Assembly: GCA_900696645.1 (NCBI GenBank)
Contig: CAADGV010000021.1
Location: 122,893-186,892 of the forward strand
Source of the DNA: an uncultured Chlorobiota bacterium
GTDB lineage: Bacteria; Bacteroidota; Ignavibacteria; UBA10030; UBA6906
Direction: 5' to 3'
DNA length: 64,000 nucleotides
A program made the translations under genes and the position numbers. This document shows positions 6,921 to 25,179 of the stretch, piece by piece. The stretch's first letter is position 1, and each line of letters opens with the position of its first letter. The notes under the pieces are model-generated. The model did no database searches, was not told where the DNA came from, and saw nothing but the letters and a program-made list of their open reading frames with translations.

Positions 6921-6999
6921 GATTCCCCTGTATACCGACCGTATCTTTGCACCAGATGTACCTGATCAACATTTCATTAATCATAAATCTGGTGTACTT

Positions 7000-7980: not shown

Positions 7981-8002
7981 TTATTCCAACGGAGAAAACA
8001 TC

Positions 8003-8668: not shown

Positions 8669-8681
8669 CCGTGACGATCAG

Positions 8682-8777
8682 ATGAGAAAGTTGATAGAAA
8701 ACTCCTTCTGGATAGCACTCGTGGTCATCAGCGTGTCGCTTTGGCTTGCGGCGGTATGGCTGATGTTCCACGACTGA
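8682..8777 (+). CDS. Putative 31-aa single-TM small protein
   Basis: MRKLIENSFWIALVVISVSLWLAAVWLMFHD*, starting 13 nt after the upstream stop; below the ORF-track length cutoff. Confidence 0.4.
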   Translation: MRKLIENSFWIALVVISVSLWLAAVWLMFHD

Positions 8778-10022: not shown

Positions 10023-10742
10023 ATGAAGGGAATACAGTTATTGTTGGTTGCGTGGATTGTTCTTTTGCAACTTAGTTGCGCCGACAAAGCAGTCACGTCG
10101 AAAGAGCCCGAACAGATTTTGCATGATTGTTCCGATCCGCCCGTTGTACGTACGGGCGAAGCGACGTACTACACGTGGGCAAACGGCGGCGGCAATTGCA
10201 TGTTCGACCCGACGCCGAACGACTTGATGGTGGCGGCAATGAATCACGTTGATTATGCAGGTTCGGGCGTTTGCGGTTCGAGCGTGAGAATAACAGGTCC
10301 AAGCGGCGAAGTAACAGTCCGCATTGTGGATCAGTGCGGGGATTGTCCTGTCGGCAACATTGACTTAAGCCCGGCAGCATTCTCGCGCATCGCCGATATT
10401 TCGCTTGGGCGCGTGCCGATCACATGGCGCTTCGTCCCGACCGCTGTTCAGGGAAACATCATCTACCATTTCAAAGATGGCAGCAATCAATGGTGGACAG
10501 CGGTGCAAATCCGCAACCATCGCTATCCGATCGCGCGGGTTGAGTACAGAACGCAGCAGGGAACGTTCACGTCGGTGAACCGGACAGACTACAACTATTT
10601 CGTTGAACCGGGCGGAATGGGTCCGGGGCCGTACACGTTTCGTGTAACCGACATCTACGGTCATGTGTTGGTAGATAGCAATGTTGTACACCGCGAAAAT
10701 CAGAACGTGGCGGGAAGCGGGCAGTTTCCGTTGTGTAATTAG
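10023..10742 (+). CDS. Expansin EXLX1/YoaJ-like lipoprotein 1
   Basis: Lipobox-like QLSC; DPBB domain (GEATYY, GGNC, IVDQC, IDLSPAAF); CBM63 domain (KDGSNQWWTAVQ, RTDYNYF). Confidence 0.9.
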   Translation: MKGIQLLLVAWIVLLQLSCADKAVTSKEPEQILHDCSDPPVVRTGEATYYTWANGGGNCMFDPTPNDLMVAAMNHVDYAGSGVCGSSVRITGPSGEVTVRIVDQCGDCPVGNIDLSPAAFSRIADISLGRVPITWRFVPTAVQGNIIYHFKDGSNQWWTAVQIRNHRYPIARVEYRTQQGTFTSVNRTDYNYFVEPGGMGPGPYTFRVTDIYGHVLVDSNVVHRENQNVAGSGQFPLCN

Positions 10743-10857: not shown

Positions 10858-11670
10858 ATGAAGGAATCGGCAAGAGTGATGATGACGGCAATGAAGGTTG
10901 CGGCAGTTCTTTTTCTGATTGTGATTTCCGGTTGTACCGACGCAACAGACGCGGTGAAGCCGCAAACGGCCGTCGAGGATGATGTGAATCAAGAAGTCTT
11001 CATTGAGGCGGGCGATTCTCTTTCTTTGATTGATGCGTTGGGGAGAAGATGTGACACGCCGTTGCGGACGGGCTTCGCTACATACTACATAGAAGCGAAC
11101 GGCGGCGGCAATTGCCTGTTCGACCCTACCCCGAACGATTTGCTGGTTGGCGCAATGAACTCGATTGATTACGCCAACTCGGATATCTGCGGCGCAACGG
11201 TTATGGTGTGGGGCCCGAAGGGCAGTGTGGCAGTGCGCATCGTTGACCAGTGCGGCGGGTGTTCGGAAGGTTCCATTGATTTGAGTCCGCTCGCGTTCTC
11301 ACGCATTGCCGATCTTCCGCAAGGTATTGTGCCTATCAAATGGAAACTAATTGCCGCGCGGGTACAGGGAAATATTCTCTACCATTTTAAAGACGGCAGC
11401 AACCAGTGGTGGACTGCGGTACAAGTTCGCAATCACCGCTACCCGATAGCGCGGCTGGAATATTTCTCCGGCGGGAGTTGGATAAACGTGCAGCGGCTCA
11501 GTTACAACTATTTTGTCGAATCAAACGGGATGGGCCCCGGTCCGTACACATTCCGCGTTACCGATCTGTTCGGCCACGTTCTGGTGGATAACGGCATTCC
11601 GCATATCGAAAACGGAAGCGTTCCGGGTGCACGACAATTTCCGTTGTGCACTGTTGTGAAGGAGTTCTGA
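10858..11670 (+). CDS. Expansin EXLX1/YoaJ-like lipoprotein 2
   Basis: Lipobox ISGC; same DPBB and CBM63 motifs (IDLSPLAF, SNQWWTAVQ, YNYF); paralog of 10023..10742. Confidence 0.9.
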   Translation: MKESARVMMTAMKVAAVLFLIVISGCTDATDAVKPQTAVEDDVNQEVFIEAGDSLSLIDALGRRCDTPLRTGFATYYIEANGGGNCLFDPTPNDLLVGAMNSIDYANSDICGATVMVWGPKGSVAVRIVDQCGGCSEGSIDLSPLAFSRIADLPQGIVPIKWKLIAARVQGNILYHFKDGSNQWWTAVQVRNHRYPIARLEYFSGGSWINVQRLSYNYFVESNGMGPGPYTFRVTDLFGHVLVDNGIPHIENGSVPGARQFPLCTVVKEF

Positions 11671-11717
11671 GAAATACAAGTTCCCGAAAAACAATCATCC
11701 GAAAATCCGGATACACT

Positions 11718-12650
11718 ATGCGATCAGTAGACTGCTGGGCTGTGTTGTGTGCTTGCATGACGGCCATTCTGCTCACTTCATGTGCTTCACAATCTGTGTA
11801 CATGCAAAATCTCACCTCCGACGGCACGATGGTCAAGCCGCCTCTGTTCATGACAGACGATACGAAAGAGGGTGATGTCCGGGTTGTTCCGAAGGTGTCT
11901 GTCGCGGCACGGCAGACTCTCGTCGGCAGGGCACACGAACATTCCAACGTTAACGACAGCGGCGTGTTTCAGGTGGATACAGTAATGCAGAACGGCACAA
12001 CGCAATACTTCGAGAGGGCGGGCGTGAACAAGAATTCTTTTCAGGGGAGGAATTTCCGCTGGGAGCCGCCGAGGGTAACAGCGTCGGTGGATTTCGAGTA
12101 CTTTGTGACGAAGACATTTTCCGTAGTTGCGGGGGCGAATTACTCATCGGGCAGTTCGCGGAGTTTCCTCGGCGCGGCGGGGGGAGTCGGCTTTTCGTTC
12201 GAAAGCAAGAATCTCGGCTTGCGTATCGATCTCGGCGCGCATTGGAGTTCGGTTGCGTACACCGTTGATTACGTCGTCGCGACGAAACTGTTCGGCGAGT
12301 CGGATCAGCGGGTTGAGTTTTTCCGCGAGTCGGGGAAATCATCCTACCTGAATTCGTACGGCGCCTTCACGCTCAACACAAAATTCAAGTCGTCGCCGAT
12401 TCAGGGATTTCTGCAGCTCGGCATCAACCGTCAGACGCTGGTTGAGATCGAGCGGCGGACATCGTTCGTCGGCAACTCGGTTGTGCTGCAATCTGCATCG
12501 TTCTTTATTGTGACGCCGGGGGTATTTTTCAACGTTGCGCCAGGGACAAGAATCGTTGCCGGGATACATTTGGCCGATGAGACCGAGTTGCTTGAAGCCG
12601 ATCCCGGAGTGTTGCTCTCGCCGTTTCTGCAAATAGAAATCGGGCTTTGA
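11718..12650 (+). CDS. Hypothetical lipoprotein with beta-barrel-like C-terminal region
   Basis: Probable start MRSVDCW; lipobox LTSC; amphipathic beta-strands; ends QIEIGL. Confidence 0.6.
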   Translation: MRSVDCWAVLCACMTAILLTSCASQSVYMQNLTSDGTMVKPPLFMTDDTKEGDVRVVPKVSVAARQTLVGRAHEHSNVNDSGVFQVDTVMQNGTTQYFERAGVNKNSFQGRNFRWEPPRVTASVDFEYFVTKTFSVVAGANYSSGSSRSFLGAAGGVGFSFESKNLGLRIDLGAHWSSVAYTVDYVVATKLFGESDQRVEFFRESGKSSYLNSYGAFTLNTKFKSSPIQGFLQLGINRQTLVEIERRTSFVGNSVVLQSASFFIVTPGVFFNVAPGTRIVAGIHLADETELLEADPGVLLSPFLQIEIGL

Positions 12651-12656
12651 CCCGTT

Positions 12657-13481
12657 CTATGCGCGAACCTGTCGAACCAGCCACGCAACACCCAAAACGG
12701 CTGATGCAACGGCCACCGCAGTGGGCGAAGTGGGAAAGTCGAGCTTGAACGCAAGAAACAACCCGACGATTGGTGAGAGCATCCCAAGAAGAACTGCAGT
12801 AAGAAAAATCCACTTTACCCGCTTTGCAATCAACATTGCGGCAACCGGCGGAACAACAAGAAAGCCGAAGACAAACACATCTCCCACCATGTGTGTCGCC
12901 ACCGAAATGACAACGGCGGCGATAATGTAGAATAGCATTTCCCAGAGGCCTGTGTTGTATCCCTGCGTGCCCGCCGTCTCCGCATCAAATGAGATGTACG
13001 AGAATTCTTTGAAGAAGAGAAGATGGACCGCCATCGTCACAACAAACACTCCTGCCATCAGATAGAACAACTCCGGCGTGACAAAAAGAATATCGCCGCG
13101 CAGAAGGTTTTCAATCTCCGAAGCTTCAACCTTCGGCGCTTTCTGCATAACGAGAATGCGTGCTGCAATCGAAAACACAAACACGAAGCCGAGAACGGCG
13201 TCCTTCGGGATGTGTTTTCCCGTGAGGAGTGTTGAGAGGATGATGACAGATGCAATCGTTACTACAAGCGACCCGATCGTGTGGGGGAGGGCGAACACCG
13301 GGAGAAACGTCAGAGCGAGACCCAGCACCGACACTTGTGTCAGAACAGCTCCCAAAAACACGACACGCTTTGCGACGATATACACCCCGAGGAACGCGCA
13401 GAGCGTCCCGACAAGCATGCTGCCGTACAGGGCATACGGAAACTCCCTGACAACGGTCAGGACAATGTCATGCGTTTCCAT
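12657..13481 (-). CDS. Zn/Mn ABC transporter permease (ZnuB/ABC-3 family)
   Basis: LGVYIVAKRVVFLG, LLRGDIL, SFDAETA, LVVPPVAA; multi-TM. Confidence 0.9.
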   Translation of the reverse strand: METHDIVLTVVREFPYALYGSMLVGTLCAFLGVYIVAKRVVFLGAVLTQVSVLGLALTFLPVFALPHTIGSLVVTIASVIILSTLLTGKHIPKDAVLGFVFVFSIAARILVMQKAPKVEASEIENLLRGDILFVTPELFYLMAGVFVVTMAVHLLFFKEFSYISFDAETAGTQGYNTGLWEMLFYIIAAVVISVATHMVGDVFVFGFLVVPPVAAMLIAKRVKWIFLTAVLLGMLSPIVGLFLAFKLDFPTSPTAVAVASAVLGVAWLVRQVRA

Positions 13482-14238
13482 TGTCTCCCCCCGCGCGAAT
13501 TATCTTGGCTCCACCCACGTTCGAGACAGTTACCGGCATTTCGTACAATGCAGAGAGGTTTTCCGCGGTAAGAATTTCGTCGACATCTCCCACCTGAAAA
13601 GCCGACCGCTCGACGAGCGCGATGCGCTTCACGTAGTTCGCAACATCATCCAATAGATGACTGACCATCAGCACCGTGAGCTTGTCGTGCTCATGCAAGT
13701 GGCGGACAAGCTGGAGAATGGAAAGTCGTGACGAGAGATCCATGCCGTTCGTCGGCTCGTCGAGAATGAGAACCTCCGGCTCGGAAGCAAGCGCACGGGC
13801 GATAAGCGTGCGCTGCTTCTGTCCGCCGGAAAGATCTTTGAACGCAACATGCTTCAGCTCGCTGATATCGACATGCTGAAGACTTTCATGCACAATTCTT
13901 CTATCATGTTGCGAAACCGATTTCAGCAAACCAACCTGACGGTAACGTCCCATCGCAACCACTTCTTCCACAGTGTATGGCATGACATAGTCTACCGTAT
14001 CGCGTTGCGGCACGTAGCCAAACCGGACGGGCTTCCCGTTGTTGTTCCGGACAATAACTTCCCCACTCATCGGCTTCAGTGTTCCGAGTATTGCGCGCAA
14101 GAGTGTTGTTTTGCCCGCCCCGTTCGGTCCAACAAGCCCGAAGAAATCGCCGTCGAGAATCGAGAACGATATGTCCTTCAGAACAATCTTCGGACCGTAA
14201 CCCAGCGTCGCATTGCGAAATTGAATCAGTGGTTGCAT
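13468..14238 (-). CDS. Zn/Mn ABC transporter ATPase (ZnuC-like)
   Basis: GPNGAGKTT, GYVPQ, LSGGQKQR, LDEPT, VSH. Confidence 0.92.
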   Translation of the reverse strand: MQPLIQFRNATLGYGPKIVLKDISFSILDGDFFGLVGPNGAGKTTLLRAILGTLKPMSGEVIVRNNNGKPVRFGYVPQRDTVDYVMPYTVEEVVAMGRYRQVGLLKSVSQHDRRIVHESLQHVDISELKHVAFKDLSGGQKQRTLIARALASEPEVLILDEPTNGMDLSSRLSILQLVRHLHEHDKLTVLMVSHLLDDVANYVKRIALVERSAFQVGDVDEILTAENLSALYEMPVTVSNVGGAKIIRAGGDNGNA

Positions 14239-14247
14239 TGCAGGTCC

Positions 14248-15132
14248 TTATTTCAATGCCTCAACGAGTGTACGAATATTGTAGTCCATCATCGAAATGT
14301 AATCCCTCGCTTCATCAACTCCTCCCACGGAAGTCGGAAGCCGGAGCACCGTGGCCGAGGTTGAGCGCGCAATTTGCTGCGGGGCGCTTGCATCATAGAA
14401 CGGCTCGACAACAATCGCCTTGATGTTTCCCGCCCTCACTTTTTGGATGAGTTGCGCCGTGTGGCCTGGCGACGGCTGTATGCCGGGCTTCGGCTCAACC
14501 TGATCAACGACGTCGAGGCCCAACCAAGCTGCAAAATACGACCAGCTTTTGTGAAAGGTGATGAGTTTTGCGCCTTTGAGCGGCCTCATCGCGTCTTCCC
14601 ACTCCGTAATCTTCGTATCAAGCTTTTTCAGAAATGCCTCAGCGTTTGTGCGAAAGAACTGCTCATCGGCGGGAGAGGATTTGATGAGAGACGCGACGAT
14701 CTCGTTGACGATGGCTCGAATATTTCGCGGATCAAGCCAGTAATGCGGATTACCGTACCGATGAACATCTCCCTGGCTTGCGTCAACTTTGTCGGGCACT
14801 TCCAGCTTGTGGATGGATTTTGAAAGATTGACAACGTCGAGGCGGGCATTGCGTGAGCCGTCAATAATCTGCGGGGCCCACATCTCCAACTCCATTCCAA
14901 TCATGAGAAACACGTCGGCCGATTTCAGCTTCATCATGTAGCTCGGTTTCACTTCCACAAAATGCGGGTTCTGATCTCCGCGAACGATGTGATCAACCGT
15001 AACTTTGTCGCCTCCAATCTGCCGGGCAAAATCGGCAAGATCGGGAAGCGTGGTGACGACGCGGACTGTTGCGTGTGCGACAATCGGCAGGGTCATCATA
15101 GCAAGAACTGCAAGTATCTTCTTCATGTTCAT
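14248..15132 (-). CDS. Metal ABC substrate-binding protein (ZnuA/TroA family)
   Basis: Start MNMKKIL with signal peptide; His ligands in NPHF, GNPHYWLDP and TFHKSW; EPKPGIQPS. Confidence 0.9.
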   Translation of the reverse strand: MNMKKILAVLAMMTLPIVAHATVRVVTTLPDLADFARQIGGDKVTVDHIVRGDQNPHFVEVKPSYMMKLKSADVFLMIGMELEMWAPQIIDGSRNARLDVVNLSKSIHKLEVPDKVDASQGDVHRYGNPHYWLDPRNIRAIVNEIVASLIKSSPADEQFFRTNAEAFLKKLDTKITEWEDAMRPLKGAKLITFHKSWSYFAAWLGLDVVDQVEPKPGIQPSPGHTAQLIQKVRAGNIKAIVVEPFYDASAPQQIARSTSATVLRLPTSVGGVDEARDYISMMDYNIRTLVEALK

Positions 15133-15145
15133 AGTCCTTTCACTG

Positions 15146-16276
15146 TTAGAAGGGATGCGCTTTATGCGGACCCAGCGAGAACAGCACCTGTAATGCAATC
15201 GAGTTTACCGACTGACTTACTCCGGCAATGTCCGTTCTGGTGTTTTGATACTGCAAACGAAGGCCCAGTGTTTCTTCAACAGGATAGTAACCGAAGAACA
15301 CGGCGATAGCCCGCGCTTTGTCATCATCGTCGTATGGTGATTGGCTCCAATCGAAGCGGGCACCGACGCTGTACGTTTTCAAGAACTGATAGTCGGCAAA
15401 GATGTACATGCCGGACGTTTTAATACTGCGTCGTTCCGGATTGCCGGCATCATCAACAAACTGGTTGAACTCGCGGTCTTGACGGCCTTTTCTGGTGTTG
15501 AACAGATATTCTCCCTGCAGCGTGAGCGACGTGTACATGTCGGGTTTATACTTGTATTTGAAATCGAAATTCCAATACCAGAACCGGTCGCGGTTGTACG
15601 GATCGTGAATGCCGGTGTACATGCTGATGCCGGTTTCAAGATCGCTGTAATCGGTCAGCGTGAAGAAACTCATCACGCGTCCCGACGTTGCATAGGTCGG
15701 CTTGGCTTCAGTGGTATCCTCAATTCCGGTCGCTTCGCCGATCGATGTTCCTCTGAGCAGATCGAAGGTGAGTTTAGTGTAGATGTTGCCGGTAGGAAGC
15801 AATGTGCTGACCGACAGGCCGAGATCGTTCAGTCCCTCGTCTCCGAAGAACCGTTCCTGCGAAAGGGGTTGTGTCACAAATGCCCATTGATGCGGGTGCA
15901 TCATGTTGATCTTGCCAAAGTCAACCCGGTACTTTCCCAGCCGTACGTTCAGGTCAAGCGGCAAGCCGCGGAATACTGTTGCGTATGCTTCTTCCAGACT
16001 GAAATCAACATGATCACCGTTGTGACTGTGCATCGCCAGGACAACATCGGCGCGTGAAAACGGATTGAGATACGATGACACGACAAGCTCGAGTTCCTGG
16101 AAACGGAAATCGGGGCGGCTGAATTCGCGAACGCCGTCTGCCAAGCGTTCTCCATCATGTGAATCAATGATGAAACGCGGGATAACACTGATATCGGGAT
16201 TAAGAGATGTTTGAGCATTGCCGGAAACGAACACAAGCGCGAGCAATGCCCCTGCACAAATTGCATGACGAAGCAT
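15146..16276 (-). CDS. Outer-membrane beta-barrel associated with metal uptake (plug-less, His-rich)
   Basis: Signal peptide, LNPDISVI, ELEL, EEAY, FGKINMMHPHQW, C-terminal GPHKAHPF; directly upstream of the SBP gene. Confidence 0.75.
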   Translation of the reverse strand: MLRHAICAGALLALVFVSGNAQTSLNPDISVIPRFIIDSHDGERLADGVREFSRPDFRFQELELVVSSYLNPFSRADVVLAMHSHNGDHVDFSLEEAYATVFRGLPLDLNVRLGKYRVDFGKINMMHPHQWAFVTQPLSQERFFGDEGLNDLGLSVSTLLPTGNIYTKLTFDLLRGTSIGEATGIEDTTEAKPTYATSGRVMSFFTLTDYSDLETGISMYTGIHDPYNRDRFWYWNFDFKYKYKPDMYTSLTLQGEYLFNTRKGRQDREFNQFVDDAGNPERRSIKTSGMYIFADYQFLKTYSVGARFDWSQSPYDDDDKARAIAVFFGYYPVEETLGLRLQYQNTRTDIAGVSQSVNSIALQVLFSLGPHKAHPF

Positions 16277-16280
16277 AAAA

Positions 16281-16333
16281 TCCTCCTTATTGGATTACTT
16301 ACGATAATTGGAAGCGTAAAAGAACAGGAGAAG
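16281..16333 (-). promoter_or_regulatory. SD-sequestering hairpin between the leader ORF and the OM barrel gene
   Basis: In the mRNA, UUCUCCU just after the leader stop can pair with the SD AGGAGGA (16287-16281); inner stem UUACG/CGUAA. Confidence 0.55.
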
Positions 16334-16681
16334 TTATGCGAAAGGCGGGCCGCGCTTGCCGGAATAAACTACATCTGTTTCAACTGTTTGCCCGGTATGC
16401 GAAGGGAATATGGCAATGGAAACAACGGCAGCATCAAATGTGAATGAGCGGCTGACATCAGCGGAAAAACGTTGCGCAAACTGTGAGCAGGCAAGGCAAT
16501 GACGCGCCTGATCGAGCGGGACGTGAATTTCCCTGGCGCCGCAGTCGTGGCTGGAGAGAACCGGCTCCGAATGCAGCGGCAGGTTTGCGTGATCGTGGTG
16601 GGCCAGATCGACCAGCGTGTTGCCAAGGAGGTACCCCAGAATGGCAAAAACGGAGAACGTATGTCGTAAGAACAAAGCCAT
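16334..16681 (-). CDS. DUF2946-like (CruR/CutF-type) leader protein with CxxC and C-terminal RGPP
   Basis: Hydrophobic N-terminus, HHDH, HCLAC, ends YSGKRGPPFA; start 16681 supported by the promoter position. Confidence 0.75.
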   Translation of the reverse strand: MALFLRHTFSVFAILGYLLGNTLVDLAHHDHANLPLHSEPVLSSHDCGAREIHVPLDQARHCLACSQFAQRFSADVSRSFTFDAAVVSIAIFPSHTGQTVETDVVYSGKRGPPFA

Positions 16682-16690
16682 TGCGTGTAG

Positions 16691-16719
16691 AATATATGCG
16701 AAGCGGGGGCGAGAAACAA
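16691..16719 (-). promoter_or_regulatory. Promoter of the metal-uptake operon
   Basis: TTGTTT-N17-TATATT, ending 9 nt before ATG 16681. Confidence 0.55.
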
Positions 16720-16887
16720 GCAACGTCTACAATCGTATCTTCACTCCGCCGTTCATCACAAACCCGTCCACGGGGGCAAAGAGGTCGTTGAAAATCGGAT
16801 TCGTGATTGTGCCTGTGTAAATGCTGCCGTATCGTGTCAGACACACAAATGGTTCGATCTGAGCTATCATGGGCAGGGGCTCAGTCC

Positions 16888-19800
16888 CTACTCGGTTTTT
16901 GCTGTCTTCCGCCTTGACTCAATCATGCTGTATATCAACGGCAGCGCAAACATTGTCAACAATGTTGACGTTATCAACCCCCCTATGACAACCGTTGCCA
17001 ACGGTCGCTGCACTTCAGCACCAGTCCCATGAGAAAGTGCCATGGGAATGAAACCGAGGCTTGCAACGAGTGCGGTCATTAGCACGGGACGTAACCGGTC
17101 TGATGCGCCTTTGATGACTGCAAACATCAGCTCGTGACCTTCCTTCAGAAGTTGGTTGATGTGGGAGATCATCACCACGCCATTGAGGACTGCGACTCCA
17201 AACAGTGCGATGAATCCGATCGAAGCAGACACACTCAGGGGAAGGTCACGGATGAACAGGGCTACCACTCCTCCGCATAACGCAAAGGGGAGATTCAGCA
17301 AGATGAGAAGCGAGTGGCGCAAGTTTCCGAAGGTCGTAAACAACAGGACAAAGATGATGAAAATGGACAATGGGACAACAACCAGCAGGCGTTGTGTGGC
17401 ACTCTCTTGATGCTCGAATTGACCGCCCCAGGTAATGTAGTACCCGGCAGGCAAGCTCACTGAGCGCTCAATACGCTGCTTTGCTTCTGCGACAAAAGTC
17501 CCGATGTCGGTTCCACGAACATTGCATTCGACGACTATCCTTCGCTGCCCGAACTCACGGCTCACCTGCACCGGCCCTTCCTCAGCAACGATGTGGGCGA
17601 CTTGTTTCAAGGGTATTGTTCCACCGCTCGGCAAGCTGACAAGGGTATTCTCGATACCCTGGATGTCTCCTCGAACACTCTCAGGATAACGGACAAGCAC
17701 CCCATATCTTGCCTGGCCTTCGATGACTTCTGTGGCAATCTTCCCGCCGATAGCGGTCTCAATGACACGCTGAACATCGGCGACATTCAGGGCGTAGCGT
17801 GCGATGGCGGCACGGTCAACATAGATGTTCAGATATGTTTGTCCTGCAACCTGCTCAGTCGATACATCGGCTGCTCCGGGAACGGTACGAACGATGTCGG
17901 CGATCTGATCCGCCTTCTCTTTGAGGATTGTGAGATCGTCCCCGAAAAGCTTGATGGCAATATCAGACTTAACTCCGGTGACAAGCTCGTCAACACGCAT
18001 GGCGATTGGCTGTGTGACATTGTAGTTCACGCCCGGAATGTGCTCCAGTTCTTTGACCATCTTATTCACAAGCTCTTCTTTGGTTTTCGCGGTCTTCCAT
18101 TCCGATTTGGGTTTGAGGGTCACATAAATGTCGCTCAGGTTTACTCCCATGGGATCCGTGGCTATGTCTGGACGACCCAAACGACCTACCACGAATTCCA
18201 CTTCCGGAAACTGCATAATGATCTGCTGGATCTTCTTCTCCATCTCAATGGATTCTGTCAGCGAGATGCTCGGCATGCGGATCGGCTGAATGAGAATGGA
18301 ACCTTCATCTAACTCGGGAATGAACTCTGTCCCGAGGCTCGGAACCAAAGCAAACGAGCCAACAAGAACCGCAAGGGCAATAGTGAATGTGATTGTTTTA
18401 CGCCTGACCGCTCTTTCGAGCAACGGCGTGTAAACCAAACGAATCCAGTGAATCAGCCTCGGTTCCTTGTGCGTTTTCTTTTCTCGCAACAGCAGACTGC
18501 TGACAACGGGAACGAATGTCAGCGTAAGTAACAGCGATCCTATCAATGCAAGCCCCACCGTCAACGCCATCGGCTTGAACATCTTTCCTTCGATGCCCTC
18601 CAGCGTTAGAATGGGGATGTACACCGCTATAATGATGAGAATGCCAAAGAGTATTGGGCGCCCCACTTCTTTTGCTGCGCTGGAGATCAATTGCAGTTTG
18701 GTCTCGTCGGCTTCCTTGTGTGTCAGTCTGCGAGTGAAGTTCTCCACCATCACCACAGAGCCGTCAACGATCATCCCAAAGTCAATTGCGCCAAGGCTCA
18801 TCAGGTTGGCTGTCAATCCAAGCCATTCCATCCCGATAAATGCAAACAGCATCGAAAGCGGGATAGTTGATGCGACGATGAGAGCAGCCCGAATGTCGCC
18901 AAGGAAAAGAAGCAGTACGGCAATTACAAGAAGTCCGCCTTCAACGAGGTTCGTGCGAACGGTGGTGATGGTCTTTTGAACAAGATCAGTTTGATCGTAG
19001 TACGGATGGATCTTGACATGCGGAGGAAGAGACTTGTTGATCTCTTCGACTTTTGCCTTGACACGCTGAATGACCTTCTGACTGTTCTCCCCTCTGAGCA
19101 TCATTACAATGGCAGCACTCACCTCGCCACGACCCTGCATGACAACTGCTCCCTGCCGGTTTTCAGGTCCGATTGTCACCCGTGCAACGTTCCTGATGTA
19201 TATAGGGGTGCCATGATCGTTCTTGACAACAATGTTCTCGAAGTCCTGCTCTTTGCTTGCAAGACCAATCCCCCGAATAATGTATTGCTCTGAGGCATGT
19301 TCGAGGTAGTTGCCGCCTGCGACGGAATTGCTTTTCTCCACAGCCTCAAACACCTCGTCGAGAGTAAGGTTGTAGCTCAACAGCTTGTTGGGATCCACGA
19401 TGATATGATACTGCTTCACAAGTCCGCCGAAGCTGTTCACTTCCGTTACGCCGGGCACTGTGCGCAGTTGTGGCTTGATGATCCAGTCCTGGATTGAGCG
19501 AAGTCCCATGAGGTCAAGACTATCGCTTTCAAGGAAGTACTGGTAGATTTCTCCCATCCCCGAAGCGATTGGCCCCATCTCCGGTTCGGGAACCGTCGGA
19601 GGGAGAGACTGCCTTGCTTTCTGGAGTCGTTCAAGAACAAGTTGCCGAGCGAAATAGATATCCACGCCATCTTCAAACACAACCGTTATCACGCTCAACC
19701 CATACTTGGAAATTGACCTGACTTCGGTGAGGCGAGGAAGGCCGTTCATTGCCACCTCGATGGGGAAGGTGACAAGCTTCTCCACCTCGACGGGGGAAAG

Positions 19801-19965
19801 CCCGTGTGCTTCGGCAATGATTTGCACTTGAACATTCGTCACATCGGGGAACGCATCAATGGGAATGTTGTTCAGCGAATACAACCCGAGAGCGGCAAGC
19901 AGGATTGTCATTGCAGCAACGAGCAAGCGCTGCTTGAGAGCAAAGTCTATTATTCGATCAATCAT
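16888..19965 (-). CDS. czcA: CzcA/CusA-family heavy-metal RND efflux pump
   Basis: IDAFPDVTNVQVQI, NLMSLGAIDFGMIVDGSVVMVEN, FIPELDEG, RLRPVLMTA, GAEVQRPLATVVIGG. Confidence 0.93.
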   Translation of the reverse strand: MIDRIIDFALKQRLLVAAMTILLAALGLYSLNNIPIDAFPDVTNVQVQIIAEAHGLSPVEVEKLVTFPIEVAMNGLPRLTEVRSISKYGLSVITVVFEDGVDIYFARQLVLERLQKARQSLPPTVPEPEMGPIASGMGEIYQYFLESDSLDLMGLRSIQDWIIKPQLRTVPGVTEVNSFGGLVKQYHIIVDPNKLLSYNLTLDEVFEAVEKSNSVAGGNYLEHASEQYIIRGIGLASKEQDFENIVVKNDHGTPIYIRNVARVTIGPENRQGAVVMQGRGEVSAAIVMMLRGENSQKVIQRVKAKVEEINKSLPPHVKIHPYYDQTDLVQKTITTVRTNLVEGGLLVIAVLLLFLGDIRAALIVASTIPLSMLFAFIGMEWLGLTANLMSLGAIDFGMIVDGSVVMVENFTRRLTHKEADETKLQLISSAAKEVGRPILFGILIIIAVYIPILTLEGIEGKMFKPMALTVGLALIGSLLLTLTFVPVVSSLLLREKKTHKEPRLIHWIRLVYTPLLERAVRRKTITFTIALAVLVGSFALVPSLGTEFIPELDEGSILIQPIRMPSISLTESIEMEKKIQQIIMQFPEVEFVVGRLGRPDIATDPMGVNLSDIYVTLKPKSEWKTAKTKEELVNKMVKELEHIPGVNYNVTQPIAMRVDELVTGVKSDIAIKLFGDDLTILKEKADQIADIVRTVPGAADVSTEQVAGQTYLNIYVDRAAIARYALNVADVQRVIETAIGGKIATEVIEGQARYGVLVRYPESVRGDIQGIENTLVSLPSGGTIPLKQVAHIVAEEGPVQVSREFGQRRIVVECNVRGTDIGTFVAEAKQRIERSVSLPAGYYITWGGQFEHQESATQRLLVVVPLSIFIIFVLLFTTFGNLRHSLLILLNLPFALCGGVVALFIRDLPLSVSASIGFIALFGVAVLNGVVMISHINQLLKEGHELMFAVIKGASDRLRPVLMTALVASLGFIPMALSHGTGAEVQRPLATVVIGGLITSTLLTMFALPLIYSMIESRRKTAKTE

Positions 19966-19980
19966 TTGATTCTCCGACGA

Positions 19981-21105
19981 CTAATGTTCTTCACCAAACG
20001 TTTCCTTGGCAAGCTCCGACTTGAGGAAGAAGCCGCCTTTGACAACAATTCTCTCTCCCACAAGCAAGCCGTCAAGAACCTCGGCAAACTCTCTTGTCTC
20101 AACTCCGGTGCGAACATCCCGGCGTTCAAATGTTGTATCATTCAGAGCGATGAAGACAAAATGCTTCTCGGTTTCTCCGAGAAGTGCGCTTGCCGGAATC
20201 TTGATCGTCTCTTTCCCGAATTGGGTCTGGACGTTTACCGTGCAGAACATCTCCGGCTTGAGTCTCCCGCGCTTGTTTGGAACGTCGACTCGTGCCTTTA
20301 CGGTTCGGGTTCTCTCGTCCAGCACATTGTAGATTGTTGAGATCGACCCCGGGAAGGAATCGGGATATGCAGCGACGATCACAAATGCTTTCATTCCTGC
20401 ACGCACAAGGGGGAGGTCCTTCTCATAGAGGTCGGCAAGTACCCACAGTGTCGAAAGGTCTGCAAGCTCAAAAAGCTCAGTGCCAACTTGCACATAGGCG
20501 CCACGACGAACATTGCTCTTGATGATGGTTCCTGCGAAGGGTGCTCGAATGTGAAGATGTGATTGAGGAACCCGGTTGACTTCCAGGTCATCCACCTCTG
20601 CATCGCTCAAACCGATGACGATAAGTTTTTGCTTTGCTGACTCGTAGATTGCCCTTGCCGCCACGCTGTCATCACTCGCTTTGGACCGAGAACGTTTCCA
20701 ACGCTCGGATGCCTGCAGGAATTCGTTCTGCAATGACAGGAATTCCTGGCTGAACAGTTCGAGAAGAACTGCGTCCTTGCCAGCGTAGTCATTGGTGAAG
20801 GCAGAGACATTTTCTATTCTTCCGCTGACACGGGCGGTGATTTGAGCAAGGTGACGCTCGTCGAAGCTGACATTGCCGGGCAGTGAAAGTGGAACAGCGA
20901 CGGACTTTCTTTGAACAGACTCGACTTTTATCCCGGCATGGAAAACCTTGTGCCTGTCGAGATGAACAACTGTTCCCGCAGCTTCCTCCTTCATGTGTTC
21001 ATTGTGGTCTTCGTCTGACTCTTTGGCTTGTTGCCGACAACCCGAAAGGGTAATGACTGCAGCAAGCGTAATGGCAAGTGCGTATGTCGTGTATGTCATG
21101 CTCAA
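19981..21105 (-). CDS. czcB: RND periplasmic adaptor (CzcB/CusB-like)
   Basis: Lipobox LSGC, His-rich N-terminus, IRAPFAGTI, LADLSTLWV, RTRTVKARV, LKPEMF. Confidence 0.88.
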   Translation of the reverse strand: MSMTYTTYALAITLAAVITLSGCRQQAKESDEDHNEHMKEEAAGTVVHLDRHKVFHAGIKVESVQRKSVAVPLSLPGNVSFDERHLAQITARVSGRIENVSAFTNDYAGKDAVLLELFSQEFLSLQNEFLQASERWKRSRSKASDDSVAARAIYESAKQKLIVIGLSDAEVDDLEVNRVPQSHLHIRAPFAGTIIKSNVRRGAYVQVGTELFELADLSTLWVLADLYEKDLPLVRAGMKAFVIVAAYPDSFPGSISTIYNVLDERTRTVKARVDVPNKRGRLKPEMFCTVNVQTQFGKETIKIPASALLGETEKHFVFIALNDTTFERRDVRTGVETREFAEVLDGLLVGERIVVKGGFFLKSELAKETFGEEH

Positions 21106-22364
21106 TCTCCTGAAGAAAACAAAGTGTCAAAGGGCAATTCACCGGACGCTTCCAATGCGGCAAGTGCTGCGGCGTGGTTGTACATCGCTCGAAGATGTTC
21201 GACTTGCGTTGCCTGATACGTGCGATAGATATCAAGCAAGTTGAGAATGTCTAGCTGGCTGTTCTGATACTGATTGATGGCGCTGGAGAGAATGTCGTCA
21301 GCATCCGCAAGAAGCGACGTATCGAAGGTGATCAATTGAGATTGCGTGGTTTTGACCGCCTCGATTGCGTTGCGAATGCTTGCCTGCACCTGCAACGCTA
21401 CGGCGTTCTGGTTCAATCTCGCAGCATCCCCGAGCACACGAGCTTCTTGAACTTGCCCGGCAGGTTCCTGCCAGAACCAGAGAGGGAGAGTCGCCTTTAA
21501 TTCGATCCCCCACAATGGAGCAACACTTCCACGGCGCTGATGTGCAAGACCAAGCTGGAAGTCCGGTAAGTATGTTGTCCTTGCCAGAGAGAGTATTTGG
21601 TCTTGGCGTTGGATACCAAGCTCTGCAATTCGCATTGTGGAGCTACGCTCACTGAGTGAAGCGGCGACCGAGTCGAGGTTCAAATGCAAAGGCAGCGTAG
21701 GGAAGTCATCGATGAGCACGATTGGCTGTTCAGCATCTCTGCCTAAGAGGAGATTGAGTTCATGCTTGTGTCGCTGCTGCTCTCGTTGCGCTTCGATGAT
21801 ATCATTCGTCAACCGTGCATGTTCGACTTTGGCTCGAAGGATTTCAAGGTACGAACTCGTCCCGGCCTGGTACTTTGCATTGAGCTGTTCCTGGAGGTCT
21901 CGGAAAAGAATGATCTGCCGGTCCAGATTCTTGACAACCCTTTGACTTAGGAGCAATCGGAAGTATGTCTGTTTTACCTCAGCGGCAATGAGAACAACTG
22001 CCCTGCCATAGCGAAGACGTGCAACTTGCACCTCGGTTGAGGCGACGTCAATCCTTGCGCTCCTCTTGGTTGGGAACTCAATTGGTTGGGTGATGCTGAT
22101 GTCTCTTTCGTTGGCCTCGTTCGGTTTGAGAATAGATTGACTTTCGTTCCAGGCAACGCCAAGTTCAGGATTTGGAATTCGTCCCGCCTGCAAGATGCGG
22201 GCGTCCGCAACTTCCTGAAACTTGCCGGCTTTGAGAACCGTTGGATTGTTCTGTAGTGCCACGATGATGGCATCAGAGAGGGAGAGTCGATCCTGGGTTT
22301 GTGCCCGTGCGGACATTGTGCCCATGAGCAAAAGCAATCCCGCCCGAATGAAATACATTCTCAA
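21102..22364 (-). CDS. czcC: TolC-family outer-membrane efflux protein (CzcC-like)
   Basis: LSLSDAI..ALQNNP, PNPEL, QPIEFPTKR, YQAG; first structural gene of the RND operon. Confidence 0.88.
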   Translation of the reverse strand: MRMYFIRAGLLLLMGTMSARAQTQDRLSLSDAIIVALQNNPTVLKAGKFQEVADARILQAGRIPNPELGVAWNESQSILKPNEANERDISITQPIEFPTKRSARIDVASTEVQVARLRYGRAVVLIAAEVKQTYFRLLLSQRVVKNLDRQIILFRDLQEQLNAKYQAGTSSYLEILRAKVEHARLTNDIIEAQREQQRHKHELNLLLGRDAEQPIVLIDDFPTLPLHLNLDSVAASLSERSSTMRIAELGIQRQDQILSLARTTYLPDFQLGLAHQRRGSVAPLWGIELKATLPLWFWQEPAGQVQEARVLGDAARLNQNAVALQVQASIRNAIEAVKTTQSQLITFDTSLLADADDILSSAINQYQNSQLDILNLLDIYRTYQATQVEHLRAMYNHAAALAALEASGELPFDTLFSSGD

Positions 22365-22411
22365 GGCGAACCTCGCTGCAAAGTGATAATTAGTTGAATA
22401 ACTGAGATTAT

Positions 22412-22444
22412 GGAGTTGGTCGTCGTATGCGACTGAGCAACTCC
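22412..22444 (-). promoter_or_regulatory. Hairpin between the leader ORF and czcC
   Basis: mRNA GGAGUUG-CUCA-GUCG-CAUA-CGAC-GAC-CAACUCC, 13 nt after the leader stop; no U-tract. Confidence 0.45.
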
Positions 22445-22457
22445 CGTAGGAATCTGC

Positions 22458-22784
22458 TTACGCAGTTATGGGAGGGCGAAACACCGACTTCTTTGGCGGT
22501 GAAGGAACCGTGAAAGAGAAAGAGGCGAAAGGCGGTTCAGCAGCCTGCGCGTAGCTGGGGGTGGCCGTTCTATGCACGACCGCAGGAACGTGACAGACAC
22601 AAGAGCAAGCAGAAGAGCCCATAGTAGATGGAGACTTTGTTGAGGAATCATGATTCCCCGACAGTGAACACACTAACGAGCTGCAACTATTCTCTGTTGT
22701 CCCATTCAGACAATCGGTATCGCCACACCAAACGATTGAGGCTGTAAAGCAAAAAAAGATAAGTATTTGGCTGAAAGTCATCAT
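22458..22784 (-). CDS. Cys-rich exported leader protein ending in FRPP, upstream of czcCBA
   Basis: Hydrophobic N-terminus, 8 Cys including CSCVCH, Pro-rich tail PSPPKKSVFRPPITA. Confidence 0.7.
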   Translation of the reverse strand: MMTFSQILIFFCFTASIVWCGDTDCLNGTTENSCSSLVCSLSGNHDSSTKSPSTMGSSACSCVCHVPAVVHRTATPSYAQAAEPPFASFSFTVPSPPKKSVFRPPITA

Positions 22785-22795
22785 AAGACTAAAGG

Positions 22796-22824
22796 AATAT
22801 ATCTAATCGGCATCGCAATTCCAA
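22796..22824 (-). promoter_or_regulatory. Promoter of the efflux operon
   Basis: TTGGAA-N17-TATATT, ending 11 nt before ATG 22784. Confidence 0.55.
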
Positions 22825-23055
22825 AAAACTGAGAGAGACGGTCTGAAACCGCAAATAACGCTAACTGTTGAAACGGCGAAGACATGCAACGTAATGATGA
22901 ATGCCATGACTCTCATGAATTTAACATTCGAAGAGATGTCATGAAATGAAACTGATGATATTCTTTCCTACCATCATTCACAAAAAATCACGTCATTACT
23001 GTAGCTCCCTTTCAGGAGCCCCGTCTTTCCCGACTTGTCTCAAGAGGAGAATGTA

Positions 23056-25179
23056 ATGTTCGTTCCGCGTGTGCGGGTTATTCTGTTGTGCCTCTCTATG
23101 CTCTCGGACGTTTATGCGACTGGAAATGACATGAATGCCACGCAACCCCCGATGGCGGAAATCAAACCGCATGTGTTGGAGAAACACGGCCATATCCGCA
23201 CCGACAATTACTACTGGCTGCGCGAGCGTGACAATCCGCAGGTTCTTGAATATCTCAACGCTGAAAACCGCTACACCGATGCCGTGATGGCTCCGGTGAA
23301 GCAATTTGAGCAGAAGCTGTTCGATGAAATGAAGGCACGCATCAAGCAGACCGACCTTTCTGTTCCATACAAACTGGATGACTACTTCTACTACACTAAA
23401 TACGAGAGCGGTAAAGAATACCCCATCTACTGCCGGAAACGGGGCTCACTTGATGCGCTGGAAGAAGTGATGCTCGATGGAAACGAGATGGCGAAAGGCC
23501 ACGGCTTCTTCAACATAGGAAGTACGGCAGTCAGTTTTCAGCAGGATATCGTTGCTTTCACTGTTGACACTGTTGGACGCCGCTTCTATACAATCCGTTT
23601 CAAGGATCTCAGATCCGGTGAAATCATGCCGGACGAGATACGCTCATCTACCGCAAATATCGCATGGGCAAACGACAACACAACTCTTTTTTATACGAAG
23701 CAGGATCCGGCCACCCTGCGGGCCCATAGAGTGTACCGTCATACGTTAGGTACAGACGCATCGAAGGACACTCTCGTTTATGAGGAAGAGGATAGCACGT
23801 TCAGTTGCAGCGTCTTCCGGACGAAATCCAAACAATACATAATGATTGCTTCACGGCAGACCCTCAGTACGGAGTATCGCTACTGTGATGCCAACACGCC
23901 GGACGGCCAGTTCAGAATCATTATGTCCAGAATGGATAATCACGAGTACTCCGTTGAACATTTCGAGAGCAACTTTTACATCCGGACGAATTACAAGGCA
24001 AAGAATTTCCGTCTGATGCGAACACCGGTATTGGACACGCGCATGCTTTCCTGGAGAGATGTGATTGTTCACAGGCGAGGTACGCTGCTGGAAGGATTCG
24101 CGATCTTCAAGGACTTTCTTGTTGTTACAGAGCGAAAGAACGGTCTGCGCCAGATACGCGTTCTTCCCTGGAGCGGCGGCGAGCATTACATCCAGTTCGA
24201 CGAGAGTGTCTACGCTGTAGGTGTCGGAATCAACCCGGATTTTGACACACATCTGCTTCGCTACAATTACCAATCATTGATCACTCCCAACTCCGTTGTT
24301 GAGTATGACATGGCGAGGCGGACGAGGACGGTGTTGAAGCAGGATGAAGTGTTGGGGGGCTACAATCCCGACAGGTACCAAACGGAGCGTGTGTTTGCAA
24401 AAGCGCCTGACGGACTCCTTGTCCCGATCTCGCTTGTCTATAAAAAGGGGATGAGAAGAAACGCAGACAATCCGTTGGTGCTGTATGGCTACGGCTCGTA
24501 CGGCATAAGCACGGACGCGACGTTCGCATCCAACCGGTTGAGTCTGCTCGACCGCGGGTTCATCTATGCTATCGCGCATGTTCGCGGGGGGCAGGAGCTT
24601 GGGCGCGAGTGGTATGAAGACGGAAAGATGCTGAAGAAAAAGAACACCTTCACCGACTTCATTGCGTGTGCCGAATTTCTCATTCAAGAACGGTATACAA
24701 CTCCCCGGAAACTCTTTGCACAGGGAGGAAGTGCCGGCGGCCTGTTGATGGGCGCGGTGATGAATATGGCGCCCAACTTCTTCAAGGGGATTGTAGCAAC
24801 CGTTCCCTTTGTTGATGTCGTCACGACGATGCTTGACGAGACGATTCCGCTGACAACATCGGAGTATGACGAATGGGGAAATCCGAACGAAAAAGAACAC
24901 TACGACTACATGCTTTCATATTCCCCCTATGATAACGTTGAGGCAAAGAACTATCCCAACCTGTTGGTGATGACGGGGTTGCATGACTCGCAGGTACAAT
25001 ACTGGGAGCCGGCCAAATGGGTTGCAAAACTCCGTGCTCTGAAAACCGACAACAATCTGCTTCTCCTCAAGACAAACATGGAAGCCGGACACGGCGGCTC
25101 CTCCGGCAGGTTTCGCAGGCTCCGCGAAACTGCGCTGCAATACGCGTTCATATTGCATCTCGTCGGGATAACAAGATAG
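23056..25179 (+). CDS. ptrB: Oligopeptidase B (S9A)
   Basis: DNYYWLRE, YGYGSYG, catalytic GGSAGG, HDSQV, AGHGG; start ATG 23056 after GAGGAG. Confidence 0.93.
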   Translation: MFVPRVRVILLCLSMLSDVYATGNDMNATQPPMAEIKPHVLEKHGHIRTDNYYWLRERDNPQVLEYLNAENRYTDAVMAPVKQFEQKLFDEMKARIKQTDLSVPYKLDDYFYYTKYESGKEYPIYCRKRGSLDALEEVMLDGNEMAKGHGFFNIGSTAVSFQQDIVAFTVDTVGRRFYTIRFKDLRSGEIMPDEIRSSTANIAWANDNTTLFYTKQDPATLRAHRVYRHTLGTDASKDTLVYEEEDSTFSCSVFRTKSKQYIMIASRQTLSTEYRYCDANTPDGQFRIIMSRMDNHEYSVEHFESNFYIRTNYKAKNFRLMRTPVLDTRMLSWRDVIVHRRGTLLEGFAIFKDFLVVTERKNGLRQIRVLPWSGGEHYIQFDESVYAVGVGINPDFDTHLLRYNYQSLITPNSVVEYDMARRTRTVLKQDEVLGGYNPDRYQTERVFAKAPDGLLVPISLVYKKGMRRNADNPLVLYGYGSYGISTDATFASNRLSLLDRGFIYAIAHVRGGQELGREWYEDGKMLKKKNTFTDFIACAEFLIQERYTTPRKLFAQGGSAGGLLMGAVMNMAPNFFKGIVATVPFVDVVTTMLDETIPLTTSEYDEWGNPNEKEHYDYMLSYSPYDNVEAKNYPNLLVMTGLHDSQVQYWEPAKWVAKLRALKTDNNLLLLKTNMEAGHGGSSGRFRRLRETALQYAFILHLVGITR

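Follow-up and report, generated by a model that had tools for sequence, protein, structure and literature searches.

Two consecutive metal-transport operons on the minus strand of contig CAADGV010000021.1, from an uncultured Chlorobiota bacterium, each begin with a small gene for a predicted exported protein that ends in a proline motif. They form an island at positions 12657-22824 of the 64,000-nt stretch analysed here (the window; all coordinates are window positions). The gene termed leader 1 precedes a porin-like outer-membrane protein (OMP) gene and a ZnuABC-type importer, and the gene termed leader 2 precedes an outer-membrane efflux protein (OEP) gene and a resistance-nodulation-division (RND) exporter. 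As judged from their conservation, both leaders are real, conserved genes. We consider it rather probable that the island contains two independent cis-acting sensor leaders with proline arrest motifs, and that leader 1 opens the ribosome binding site (RBS) of the following gene when its ribosome is stalled; the stalling, the identity of the metal and the direction of either response are what we infer. An earlier reading of this DNA (the original prediction) had likened both genes to published metal-sensing arrest leaders, and the anatomy agrees: an export helix, a Cys/His motif, a spacer of fixed length, a C-terminal xPP motif, the position as first operon gene, and an outer-membrane gene next.

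Both leaders belong to conserved families with fixed motif spacing

Nine homologs of leader 1, at 39-95% identity, were found in a collection of 5.8 billion proteins, and six loci came from species genomes with Ignavibacteria, Ignavibacteriales or Bacteroidota in their titles. Within the order, 92 of 277 genomes contain a match to the family, and all 11 matches in a sample of 301 genomes spread over the phylum fell within this same order. Alignment of 15 sequences revealed L23, H28, H45, C47, G48, E51, H53, C62, A64, C65, R71 and the block G108-K-R-G-P-P113 as invariant. RGPP is present in all 24 relatives, including those at E ~1e-8, and is followed by 2-10 residues to the end of the protein. 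The distance from CxxC to RGPP is 44 residues in the window copy and in 19 of these 24 (range 42-46). The hydrophobic N-terminal window scores 1.71, and an AlphaFold2 model built on the family alignment shows a confident helix at residues 2-33 and predicted local distance difference test (pLDDT) values below 50 for the remainder (mean pLDDT 52). The order leader, porin-like OMP, ZnuA is kept in loci L001-L005, with ATPase and permease genes visible in L002, L003 and L005; in more distant relatives the leader is followed by a member of this OMP family, by another OMP or by a TonB receptor (L032, L033). In L003 the ZnuA-type gene reads as a 581-aa open reading frame (ORF; 6974-8719) extending into the ATPase region, perhaps through gene fusion, through a frameshift or as an artefact of how ORFs were listed.

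For leader 2 a word search returned a single homolog, and a HMMER scan of 1.84 billion representatives returned at least 105 clusters at E<=1e-3, 53 of them at E<=1e-10. The family was matched in 58 of the 277 genomes of the order. The window copy combines a hydrophobic N-terminus (window score 2.26) with the Cys clusters WCGDTDC, SCSSLVC and CSCVCH. In an alignment of 56 sequences WCGDxDC, CxSLxC and CxCVCH are conserved, with C60, C62, C64 and H65 kept in at least 90%, and the proteins end in [FY][RH]PP plus 2-3 residues. Among 107 family members 86 have PP inside the last 9 residues, the other 21 lacking one motif under the patterns used; R or H precedes PP in 78 of the 86, and 2-3 residues follow it in 84. 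The distance from CxCxCH to [RH]PP is 38 residues in 83 of the 86 sequences showing both motifs. In the AlphaFold2 model from the family alignment the helix 4-20 is confident, the mean pLDDT is 71, and the C-terminal third reaches 74-88. The gene after leader 2 encodes an OEP in the window and in six of seven relatives. In the seventh, L023 (G133:C102), a member ending SIFRPPII precedes a TonB-dependent receptor gene and not an efflux OEP gene, so the family is not tied to export only. The match at G308:C16:8508-8840 contains an in-frame TAA, which might reflect decay of this copy or a fault of the assembly.

In both families the segment from the last Cys to the Arg/His before PP is conserved in length and not in sequence, and AlphaFold2 predicts a compact fold for neither leader (predicted template modelling score 0.27-0.28). 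An outer-membrane gene always comes next, for an OEP or TonB receptor after leader 2 and for a porin-like OMP or TonB receptor after leader 1. Conservation of the tails in homologs, by which the original prediction proposed to be judged, is thus seen on both sides (RGPP 24/24, [RH]PP 78/86). Within the genome the combination of features is rare. Of 24529 stop-to-stop ORFs of at least 70 aa, 62 end in [RH][AG]?PP plus 1-6 residues, 14 of these have a Cys pair 25-60 residues upstream, and a hydrophobic N-terminal window (>=1.7) remains in three, namely both leaders and an unrelated 369-aa ORF; by this ORF screen the genome holds no further leaders of such kind. Of the two, only leader 1 unites what defines RAPP/RGPP arrest peptides, namely small size, a localisation signal, R-[AG]-P-P close to the C-terminal end and a gene downstream on the same strand.

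The stop region of leader 1 is predicted to sequester the porin-like gene's ribosome binding site

Leader 1 and the OMP gene are separated by 57 nt, leader 2 and the OEP gene by 93 nt. The minimum free energy (MFE) fold of the leader-1 spacer has -15.6 kcal/mol (z -2.13), and 7 of 200 shuffled sequences were as stable. It consists of two helices with 13 bp in all at the window locus: GCAUAA, the last codon plus stop, pairs with UUAUGC, which includes the OMP start codon, and UUCUCCU after the stop pairs with AGGAGGA, the OMP gene's Shine-Dalgarno (SD) sequence. The probability that this SD is paired, P(SD paired), is 0.97, entirely with the zone reaching from the R codon to 15 nt past the stop. 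Among 15 non-redundant leader-1 loci, P(SD paired) was at least 0.8 in 10, compared to 31% of 231 control genes with a strong SD, and the partner of the SD lay within the same zone in 10. The 16S rRNA of the genome ends in the canonical CCUCC. Strong SDs are uncommon: 177 of 2051 ORFs of at least 300 aa reach GGAGGA strength even if each is scored at its most favourable early start. Against these rare strong SDs of the genome, AAGGAGGA before the porin-like gene stands out.

Codon choice at the proline motif points in the same direction. In six of the 15 loci the G-P-P codons (GGUCCUCC) pair with GGAGGAYC, a match attained by at most 1 in 100 synonymous recodings. The first Pro codon of the motif is CCT in 10 of 15 loci vs 57 of 320 Pro codons elsewhere in these loci, and the Gly codon is GGT in 11 of 15 vs 14 of 86 other Gly codons. 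This bias yields the complement of GGAGGAYC. For leader 2 the first Pro codon is CCT in all eight loci, compared to 41 of 148 other Pro codons. As far as it can be read from sequence, the leader-1 pairing fits a switch of the SecM/CutF type, in which a stall opens the RBS.

In the leader-2 operon the SD GAGG precedes a conserved TTG start, and GAGGTnnnnCTTGAAA is kept in closer relatives. The spacer measures 77-111 nt in eight loci. Its hairpin at 22444-22412 was not conserved as a consensus in these eight loci and is not listed as terminator-like.

Promoters, transcripts and regulators

If the TATATT boxes are promoters, both leader mRNAs are probably leaderless or nearly so, since the ATGs lie 9 (leader 1) and 11 nt (leader 2) past the boxes and have no SD. 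The layout TTGnnT-N17-TATATTG-N8-9-ATG is kept in loci L001-L006. The -35, the -10 and the ATG are the sole conserved blocks in six aligned leader-1 promoter loci, in which no conserved operator, palindrome or AT-rich box was seen. The leader-1 promoter is called from this conservation; a simple promoter scan here is not above chance (10 sites, compared to 7.7 +/- 2.9) and lists the leader-2 site only. On the minus strand no intrinsic terminator was listed for the spacer after leader 2 or for the stretch from the RND stop to leader 1, and no Rfam element matched at E<=1 across 12400-23200.

Expression data consisted of contigs (Logan) from four runs on record as RNA, in which strand, 5' ends and levels are not readable. 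Leader 1 and the OMP gene are bridged by contigs of X13 (15511-16673) and X11 (15345-16610), leader 2 and the OEP gene by contigs of X13 (22286-22771), X11 (22001-22761) and X6 (21699-23100). The X13 contig stops 8 nt inside leader 1. The leader-2 contigs from two studies end at 22771 (X13) and 22761 (X11), which is 13 and 23 nt inside the ORF, without loose ends, and the X11 contig end at 16610 is adapter sequence. Cover by X13 is absent from 16732-22093 and present over leader 2 and the early OEP gene, the gaps carrying no evidential weight; cover by X6 is even over the whole region, and this library may hold DNA. The contigs would suit co-transcription of each leader with its next gene, and also 5' ends at the ATGs, and we take them as a weak hint. 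Near-identical DNA or RNA of the region occurs in activated-sludge, wastewater and bioreactor libraries from 10 studies (runs X1-X20).

According to the original prediction the circuit works free of transcription factors. A domain scan of 12 ORFs (10858-25179) detected no regulator domains, which does not establish such freedom: the genome contains one Fur-family gene outside the island, on contig C42.

Relation to known arrest leaders

The two leaders showed no homology to each other (BLASTP E 8.7; hhalign probabilities 0.1% and 0.7%), and membership in DUF2946 (PF11162), the family invoked by the original prediction, had to be rejected for both. Neither matches the Pfam model at E<=0.1 (gathering score 23.7 bits), nor is there support from profile-profile comparison with same-phylum members: hhalign against a small reference set of seven such DUF2946 sequences gave 1.7% for leader 1, over a 10-residue tail only, and 4.7% for leader 2. 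DUF2946 was found in none of 10 leader-1 relatives at E<=10 and nowhere over cut-off in the whole genome; it was touched by one of 56 leader-2 relatives (E 0.0047) and exceeded the cut-off in 4 of the 301 genomes of the phylum sample. A marginal DUF2946 hit of the same order, at L010 (G157:C8) with 23.8 bits, ends in HRGPPIILG; RGPP therefore occurs within DUF2946 as well as in the leader-1 family. The CopL model NF033807 matches leader 2 with 20.5 bits (E 5.9e-4), below its cut-off of 40, aligning residues 50-106 with profile positions 69-128 of 129; six of the 56 leader-2 relatives match it at E<=0.01, the best at 5.2e-6. Given no DUF2946 match, no profile-profile support and only a weak CopL match, both leaders are, on sequence grounds, to be filed as working like the CruR/CutF class and not as members of its families.

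The traits of the DUF2946 type are unevenly shared. An N-terminal export or membrane segment is indicated in both leaders by hydrophobic windows and AlphaFold helices, and both are the first gene of a metal-homeostasis operon. The CXXC of the CruR type is present in leader 1 only (C62-x-x-C65), leader 2 having CxCxCH and two CxxxxC pairs. In place of the C-terminal RAPP, leader 1 has RGPP plus two residues and leader 2 has FRPP plus three, with the Arg shifted by one place. The CruR spacing of 45 (+/-1-2) accommodates leader 1 with its 44 residues and not leader 2 with 38.

CruR (Bp2923) of Bordetella pertussis is the closest counterpart of leader 1. Its CXXC-RAPP gap of 45 varies by no more than 1-2 residues across >2000 proteins, and regulation is abolished when five residues are added to it (PMC9426467). 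As with CruR, the operon of leader 1 opens with a small gene whose product starts with an export or membrane segment; an outer-membrane gene for import and further uptake genes come next, and the invariant CxxC of leader 1 stands 44 residues ahead of an R-[AG]-P-P that lies a few residues before the stop. CruR is also predicted to be largely unstructured (PMC9426467), as both leaders are. Leader 1 differs in the missing PF11162 match, in RGPP for RAPP and in an additional invariant HxCGxxExH block. Downstream it has a porin-like OMP and a ZnuABC-type importer, compared to a TonB receptor with PepSY, and a 57-nt spacer with an SD-burying stem, compared to the 162-nt spacer with Rho-dependent termination described for cruR; it also has a probably leaderless start and belongs to an Ignavibacteria lineage. 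CruR has been proposed to sense cytoplasmic copper without need of its signal peptide (PMC9426467). Periplasmic sensing, which the original prediction ascribed to CruR and CutF alike, consequently holds for the CutF model and is not common to both.

CutF of Rhodobacter capsulatus resembles the leaders as an exported Cys-rich leader with several Cys pairs and a proline stall motif 2-3 residues before the stop; it is needed in cis, and a stem-loop conceals the SD of the next gene (PMC9973294; 10.1101/2025.02.05.636593). Such SD occlusion is supported in part for leader 1 (the window and 10 of 15 loci, with no consensus structure) and not for leader 2 (two of eight loci). The commonest neighbours of CutF-like genes are OEP/RND efflux genes, which is the context of leader 2, followed by TonB receptors, and CopL and CzcI belong to the same network (PMC9973294). 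Leader 2 carries CxCxCH and [RH]PP, compared to CxxxC and PPP in CutF. Its C-terminal half aligns to the end of the profile of CopL, which must be present in cis if metal is to induce the gene that follows (PMC9973294); copL lies upstream of copAB in Xanthomonas and Stenotrophomonas, that is, in another phylum and ahead of a multicopper oxidase instead of an RND exporter. CzcI and CC2720-type genes likewise are small exported Cys/His genes directly ahead of a divalent-metal RND operon (PMC9973294; PMC4176598). CzcI is described without a proline motif (PMC9973294), whereas leader 2 keeps [RH]PP and its strict 38-residue spacing.

RGPP and RAPP have been reported as the most robust arrest cores refractory to elongation factor P, RGPP being the strongest; they are rare in proteomes, RGPP being reportedly avoided more than any other word of four residues in many bacterial phyla, but show enrichment at the C-terminal ends of small secreted proteins encoded ahead of metal genes (PMC12992588). 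Upstream ORFs (uORFs) encoding them precede Sec, TonB-receptor, YcnI, PCuAC and PepSY genes (PMC12992588). Leader 1 shares with the RAPP/RGPP peptides (ApdA, ApdP, SecM-like) the C-terminal RGPP, a localisation signal and a same-strand metal-homeostasis gene downstream. The downstream classes in the main text of that survey include no zinc, porin, efflux or ABC transporters (PMC12992588). A full-text literature search returned no bacterial case of uORF stalling for zinc or ZnuA, although the supplementary member lists for CruR, CutF and RAPP/RGPP may already include both families.

A mechanism for both leaders

In the mechanism that we propose, the N-terminal helix of each leader would insert or export the nascent chain, Cys/His residues would serve as ligands, and the arrest motif would follow the last Cys at a fixed distance of 44 or 38 residues. 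On leader 1 the ribosome would arrest with the Pro112 and Pro113 codons in its P and A sites. By geometry a ribosome held there would reach approximately the stop codon and open the basal helix that buries the AUG and the AGGAGGA SD of the OMP gene. Since the stalled ribosome would cover the base of the stem, the operon for the porin and the Zn/Mn-type importer would be translated only during the stall. Metal bound to the nascent chain would set the duration of the stall. By analogy to CruR, metal may release the stall and turn uptake off, so that leader 1 would combine a CruR-like logic with a SecM/CutF-like read-out in which the stall opens the RBS. By analogy to CutF and CopL, metal on the exported cysteines of leader 2 may instead prolong the stall and turn efflux on.

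A bolder version would make leader 1 the first zinc-type (non-copper) nascent-chain sensor, a leaderless RGPP peptide whose arrest codons (GGU-CCU-CC) or stop region double as the anti-SD arm, and would have it control, together with leader 2, import and export of a divalent metal by arrest alone and with opposite signs. The time that a ribosome dwells at the arrest site would in this case translate directly into how far the strong SD of the porin/ZnuABC uptake operon is exposed. We regard this version as conceivable, though doubtful.

Weighing the evidence

Several observations weigh against two arrest leaders of this kind. For leader 1 in the window, the narrow stall-zone test gave no better result than recoded controls (55/100), and its G-P-P codons, GGC CCG CCU, are an exception to the codon bias; in the window the case is carried by the helix beginning with the last codon. 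Pairing between stall zone and SD is missing from 5 of the 15 leader-1 loci, and in-silico SD pairing is common in controls, too (mean 0.67). The loci are kin, so that counts and Fisher tests overstate their independence. RNAalifold returned a consensus of 0 pairs for 8 leader-2 and 13 leader-1 spacers, that is, no alignment-level covariation, which is a weak negative because the alignments are gappy and the register of pairing shifts. SD occlusion by leader 2 was not supported, as zone-SD pairing was present in two of eight loci and P(SD paired) was like that of controls. FRPP/HPP is not a RAPP-type core, because its Arg sits one place closer to PP, and leader 2 of this genome has no positive charge ahead of the hydrophobic segment. 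The RNA contigs are silent on strand and 5' ends and their libraries possibly contain DNA. A trans-acting regulator is possible, given the Fur-family gene on another contig, and the invariant His/Cys/Glu pattern of leader 1 would fit a stable metal-binding protein equally well.

The last point leads to the view that both proteins are stable periplasmic or membrane-anchored metal-binding accessories acting in trans, for example metallochaperones or CzcI-like regulators, with xPP as a docking or degradation signal. The ligand-like H28, H45, C47, E51, H53, C62 and C65 of leader 1, invariant over ~40 residues, would suit such a protein, as would the three Cys clusters of leader 2 and its C-terminal third modelled at pLDDT 74-88, and a precedent is offered by CzcI, a DUF2946-like protein encoded upstream of czcCBA without a proline motif, which is thought to be a metal-sensing regulator (PMC9973294). 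A stable protein is harder to reconcile with a spacer conserved in length and not in sequence, with the lack of a predicted compact fold, and with leader genes that always head the operon. It also does not account for an RGPP that stays invariant 2-10 residues from the end although this word is reported to be the most avoided (PMC12992588), nor for the nucleotide-level bias at the G-P-P codons and the pairing of the SD with the stop region. We therefore judge trans-acting accessories to be unlikely.

Zinc uptake and efflux operons are usually under the control of Zur, ZntR or CzcRS. A distant transcription factor of the Zur/Fur type, or another, might thus mainly control both operons, with the small ORFs adding little or nothing. 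The Fur-family gene on contig C42 is a candidate, and a Zur box has been predicted for the DUF2946 gene that precedes czrCBA in Caulobacter (PMC4176598). Such a factor would leave the invariant tails, the fixed spacings and the SD pairing unexplained; moreover, the island and its flanks lack a regulator gene in the 12 ORFs scanned, and the six leader-1 promoters conserve -35, -10 and ATG only. We find a distant factor as main control quite improbable, but it is not exclusive of arrest leaders. For leader 2 alone, a CruR-like alternative is that the stalled ribosome blocks Rho or other termination in the 93-nt spacer and so controls read-through. The length of this spacer over the eight loci, which may be compared to the 162 nt of cruR (PMC9426467), the unsupported SD occlusion and a stable hairpin without U-tract would all be in keeping with it; as the hairpin is not kept as a consensus and CruR-type control has been described for import and not for efflux, we would give read-through control little credence. 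Two arrest leaders, with RBS opening by leader 1, thus remain the reading that we favour.

The tandem arrangement was found in this genome only

The original prediction viewed the two operons as a paired circuit, a view that the genomes of the order do not support. Both families occur in 26 of the 277 genomes of the order, compared to 19.3 expected (odds ratio 1.9, uncorrected for kinship), but adjacency is confined to this genome. None of the other 25 has the families at 10 kb or less from each other on a single contig, and assemblies of only 3-10 contigs are among them; in genome G447 they are 528 kb apart. In L003, L004 and L005 a gene for an S9 peptidase (prolyl-oligopeptidase) is directly divergent from leader 1, with intergenic DNA only between them, whereas in the window the peptidase gene lies upstream of leader 2 (comparison 16682-23034). 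Since the peptidase gene adjoins leader 1 in L003-L005, the 6-kb module of leader 2, OEP, membrane fusion protein (MFP) and RND genes is, from this comparison of gene order, an insertion here or a loss elsewhere, and the tandem layout is incidental. In the window, the peptidase gene still has next to it a conserved piece of the ancestral spacer (ATAATGAAG..GATTTTCGG..GATGGTAG-like).

Gene content of the island

The layout that the original prediction described for both operons, with promoter-like box, gap to the ATG, ORF of ~110 aa, hairpin and outer-membrane gene, was retrieved with all its elements on the minus strand. The positions are compiled below.

Features of the two operons, listed in the direction of reading on the minus strand
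Feature	Position	Strand	Remarks
Leader-2 promoter-like site TTGGAA-N17-TATATT	22824-22796	minus	ATG at 22784 after 11 nt, without SD
Leader 2	22784-22458	minus	108-aa exported Cys-rich ORF, tail VFRPPITA*
Leader-2 CSCVCH codons, residues 60-65	22590..22607	minus	Near-invariant Cys/His motif of the leader-2 family
Leader-2 F-R-P-P codons UUU CGC CCU CCC	22470..22481	minus	Candidate stall site
Leader-2 spacer hairpin GGGAGUUG...CAACUCC	22412..22444	minus	In MFE and centroid structures; without U-tract
TolC-like OEP gene	22364-21102	minus	TTG start, GAGG SD; PF02321, 121.5 bits
CusB/CzcB-type (HlyD-type) MFP, periplasmic adaptor	21105-19981	minus	HlyD_D23, 197.7 bits; TIGR01730 above cut-off
RND pump, CusA/CzcA heavy-metal efflux family	19965-16888	minus	TIGR00914, 1304.4 bits (cut-off 701.45); ACR_tran
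Leader-1 promoter-like site TTGTTT-N17-TATATT	16719-16691	minus	ATG at 16681 after 9 nt, without SD
Leader 1	16681-16334	minus	115-aa ORF: N-terminal membrane helix, HxCGxxExH (HDCGAREIH), CxxC (CLAC), tail GKRGPPFA*
Leader-1 C62-L-A-C65 codons	16487..16498	minus	Invariant CxxC
Leader-1 R-G-P-P codons CGC GGC CCG CCU	16343..16354	minus	Candidate arrest site
Leader-1 stem-loop, two helices	16273..16339	minus	Stop region predicted to pair with OMP AUG and SD
Porin-like OMP gene, 376 aa	16276-15146	minus	Signal peptide, C-terminal Phe; BBP2 weak match
ZnuA/AztC-like binding protein	15198 or 15132 to 14248	minus	Pfam ZnuA, 217.8 bits
Importer ATPase	14238-13468	minus	Pfam ABC_tran, 104.4 bits
Importer permease	13481-12657	minus	Pfam ABC-3, 142.1 bits
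Terminator-like hairpin	12654-12641		After the permease gene

The transported metal is probably divalent (Zn/Cd/Co-type), as judged from sequence models: the pump belongs to the CusA/CzcA family, the best adaptor and OEP models are divalent-metal types, and the best models of the ATP-binding cassette (ABC) importer are AztABC. For the MFP the best specific model is CzcB/NccB; this match and that of the OEP to its divalent-metal model are below cut-off. A ZnuA-fold protein, an ABC-3 permease and an ATPase in one operon are the composition of a ZnuABC/AztABC-type cluster A-I importer. The equivalog models AztC/AztA/AztB, MntC and ZnuA all score under their cut-offs, AztC/A/B being the best, and for this reason the metal of the importer is not settled by them. 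The OMP matches BBP2 of Pfam with 19.4 bits, below cut-off; its nearest clusters are unnamed (ranks 1-3, and 24 of 30 matches), with porin-family clusters at ranks 5 and 18.

Downstream of the island on the plus strand, two tandem paralogous genes (10023-10742 and 10858-11670) encode secreted double-psi beta-barrel (DPBB; RlpA/expansin-like) proteins, the second matching PF03330 with 31.1 bits; L003 and L005 retain one DPBB homolog downstream of their Znu operons. A 334-aa ORF on the same strand (11646-12650) is convergent with the Znu permease gene, matches no Pfam or NCBIfam family and is found at the same place in L002, L003 and L005 with 41-47% identity.

Implications

For metal-sensing arrest leaders of the CruR/CutF class, copper is the only metal for which the workings have been established, for the most part in Proteobacteria. 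We regard the two families as new and probable examples of an established type of regulator, with leader 1 in the new context of a ZnuABC-type importer and a porin. Neither is captured by the Pfam model with which the class was mapped, and both come from Ignavibacteria of the phylum Bacteroidota, in which copper-related RAPP/RGPP uORFs are stated not to have been found (PMC12992588). The strict spacings of 44 and 38 residues and the predicted use of Pro codons as an anti-SD arm lead to sharp predictions on how ligand binding would be coupled to ribosome release. Natural variants are plentiful: the leader-2 family counts at least 105 clusters, and the leader-1 family is matched in 92 genomes of a single order. 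Even if the mechanism should prove wrong, two conserved, unannotated families of small proteins tied to metal transport would stand.

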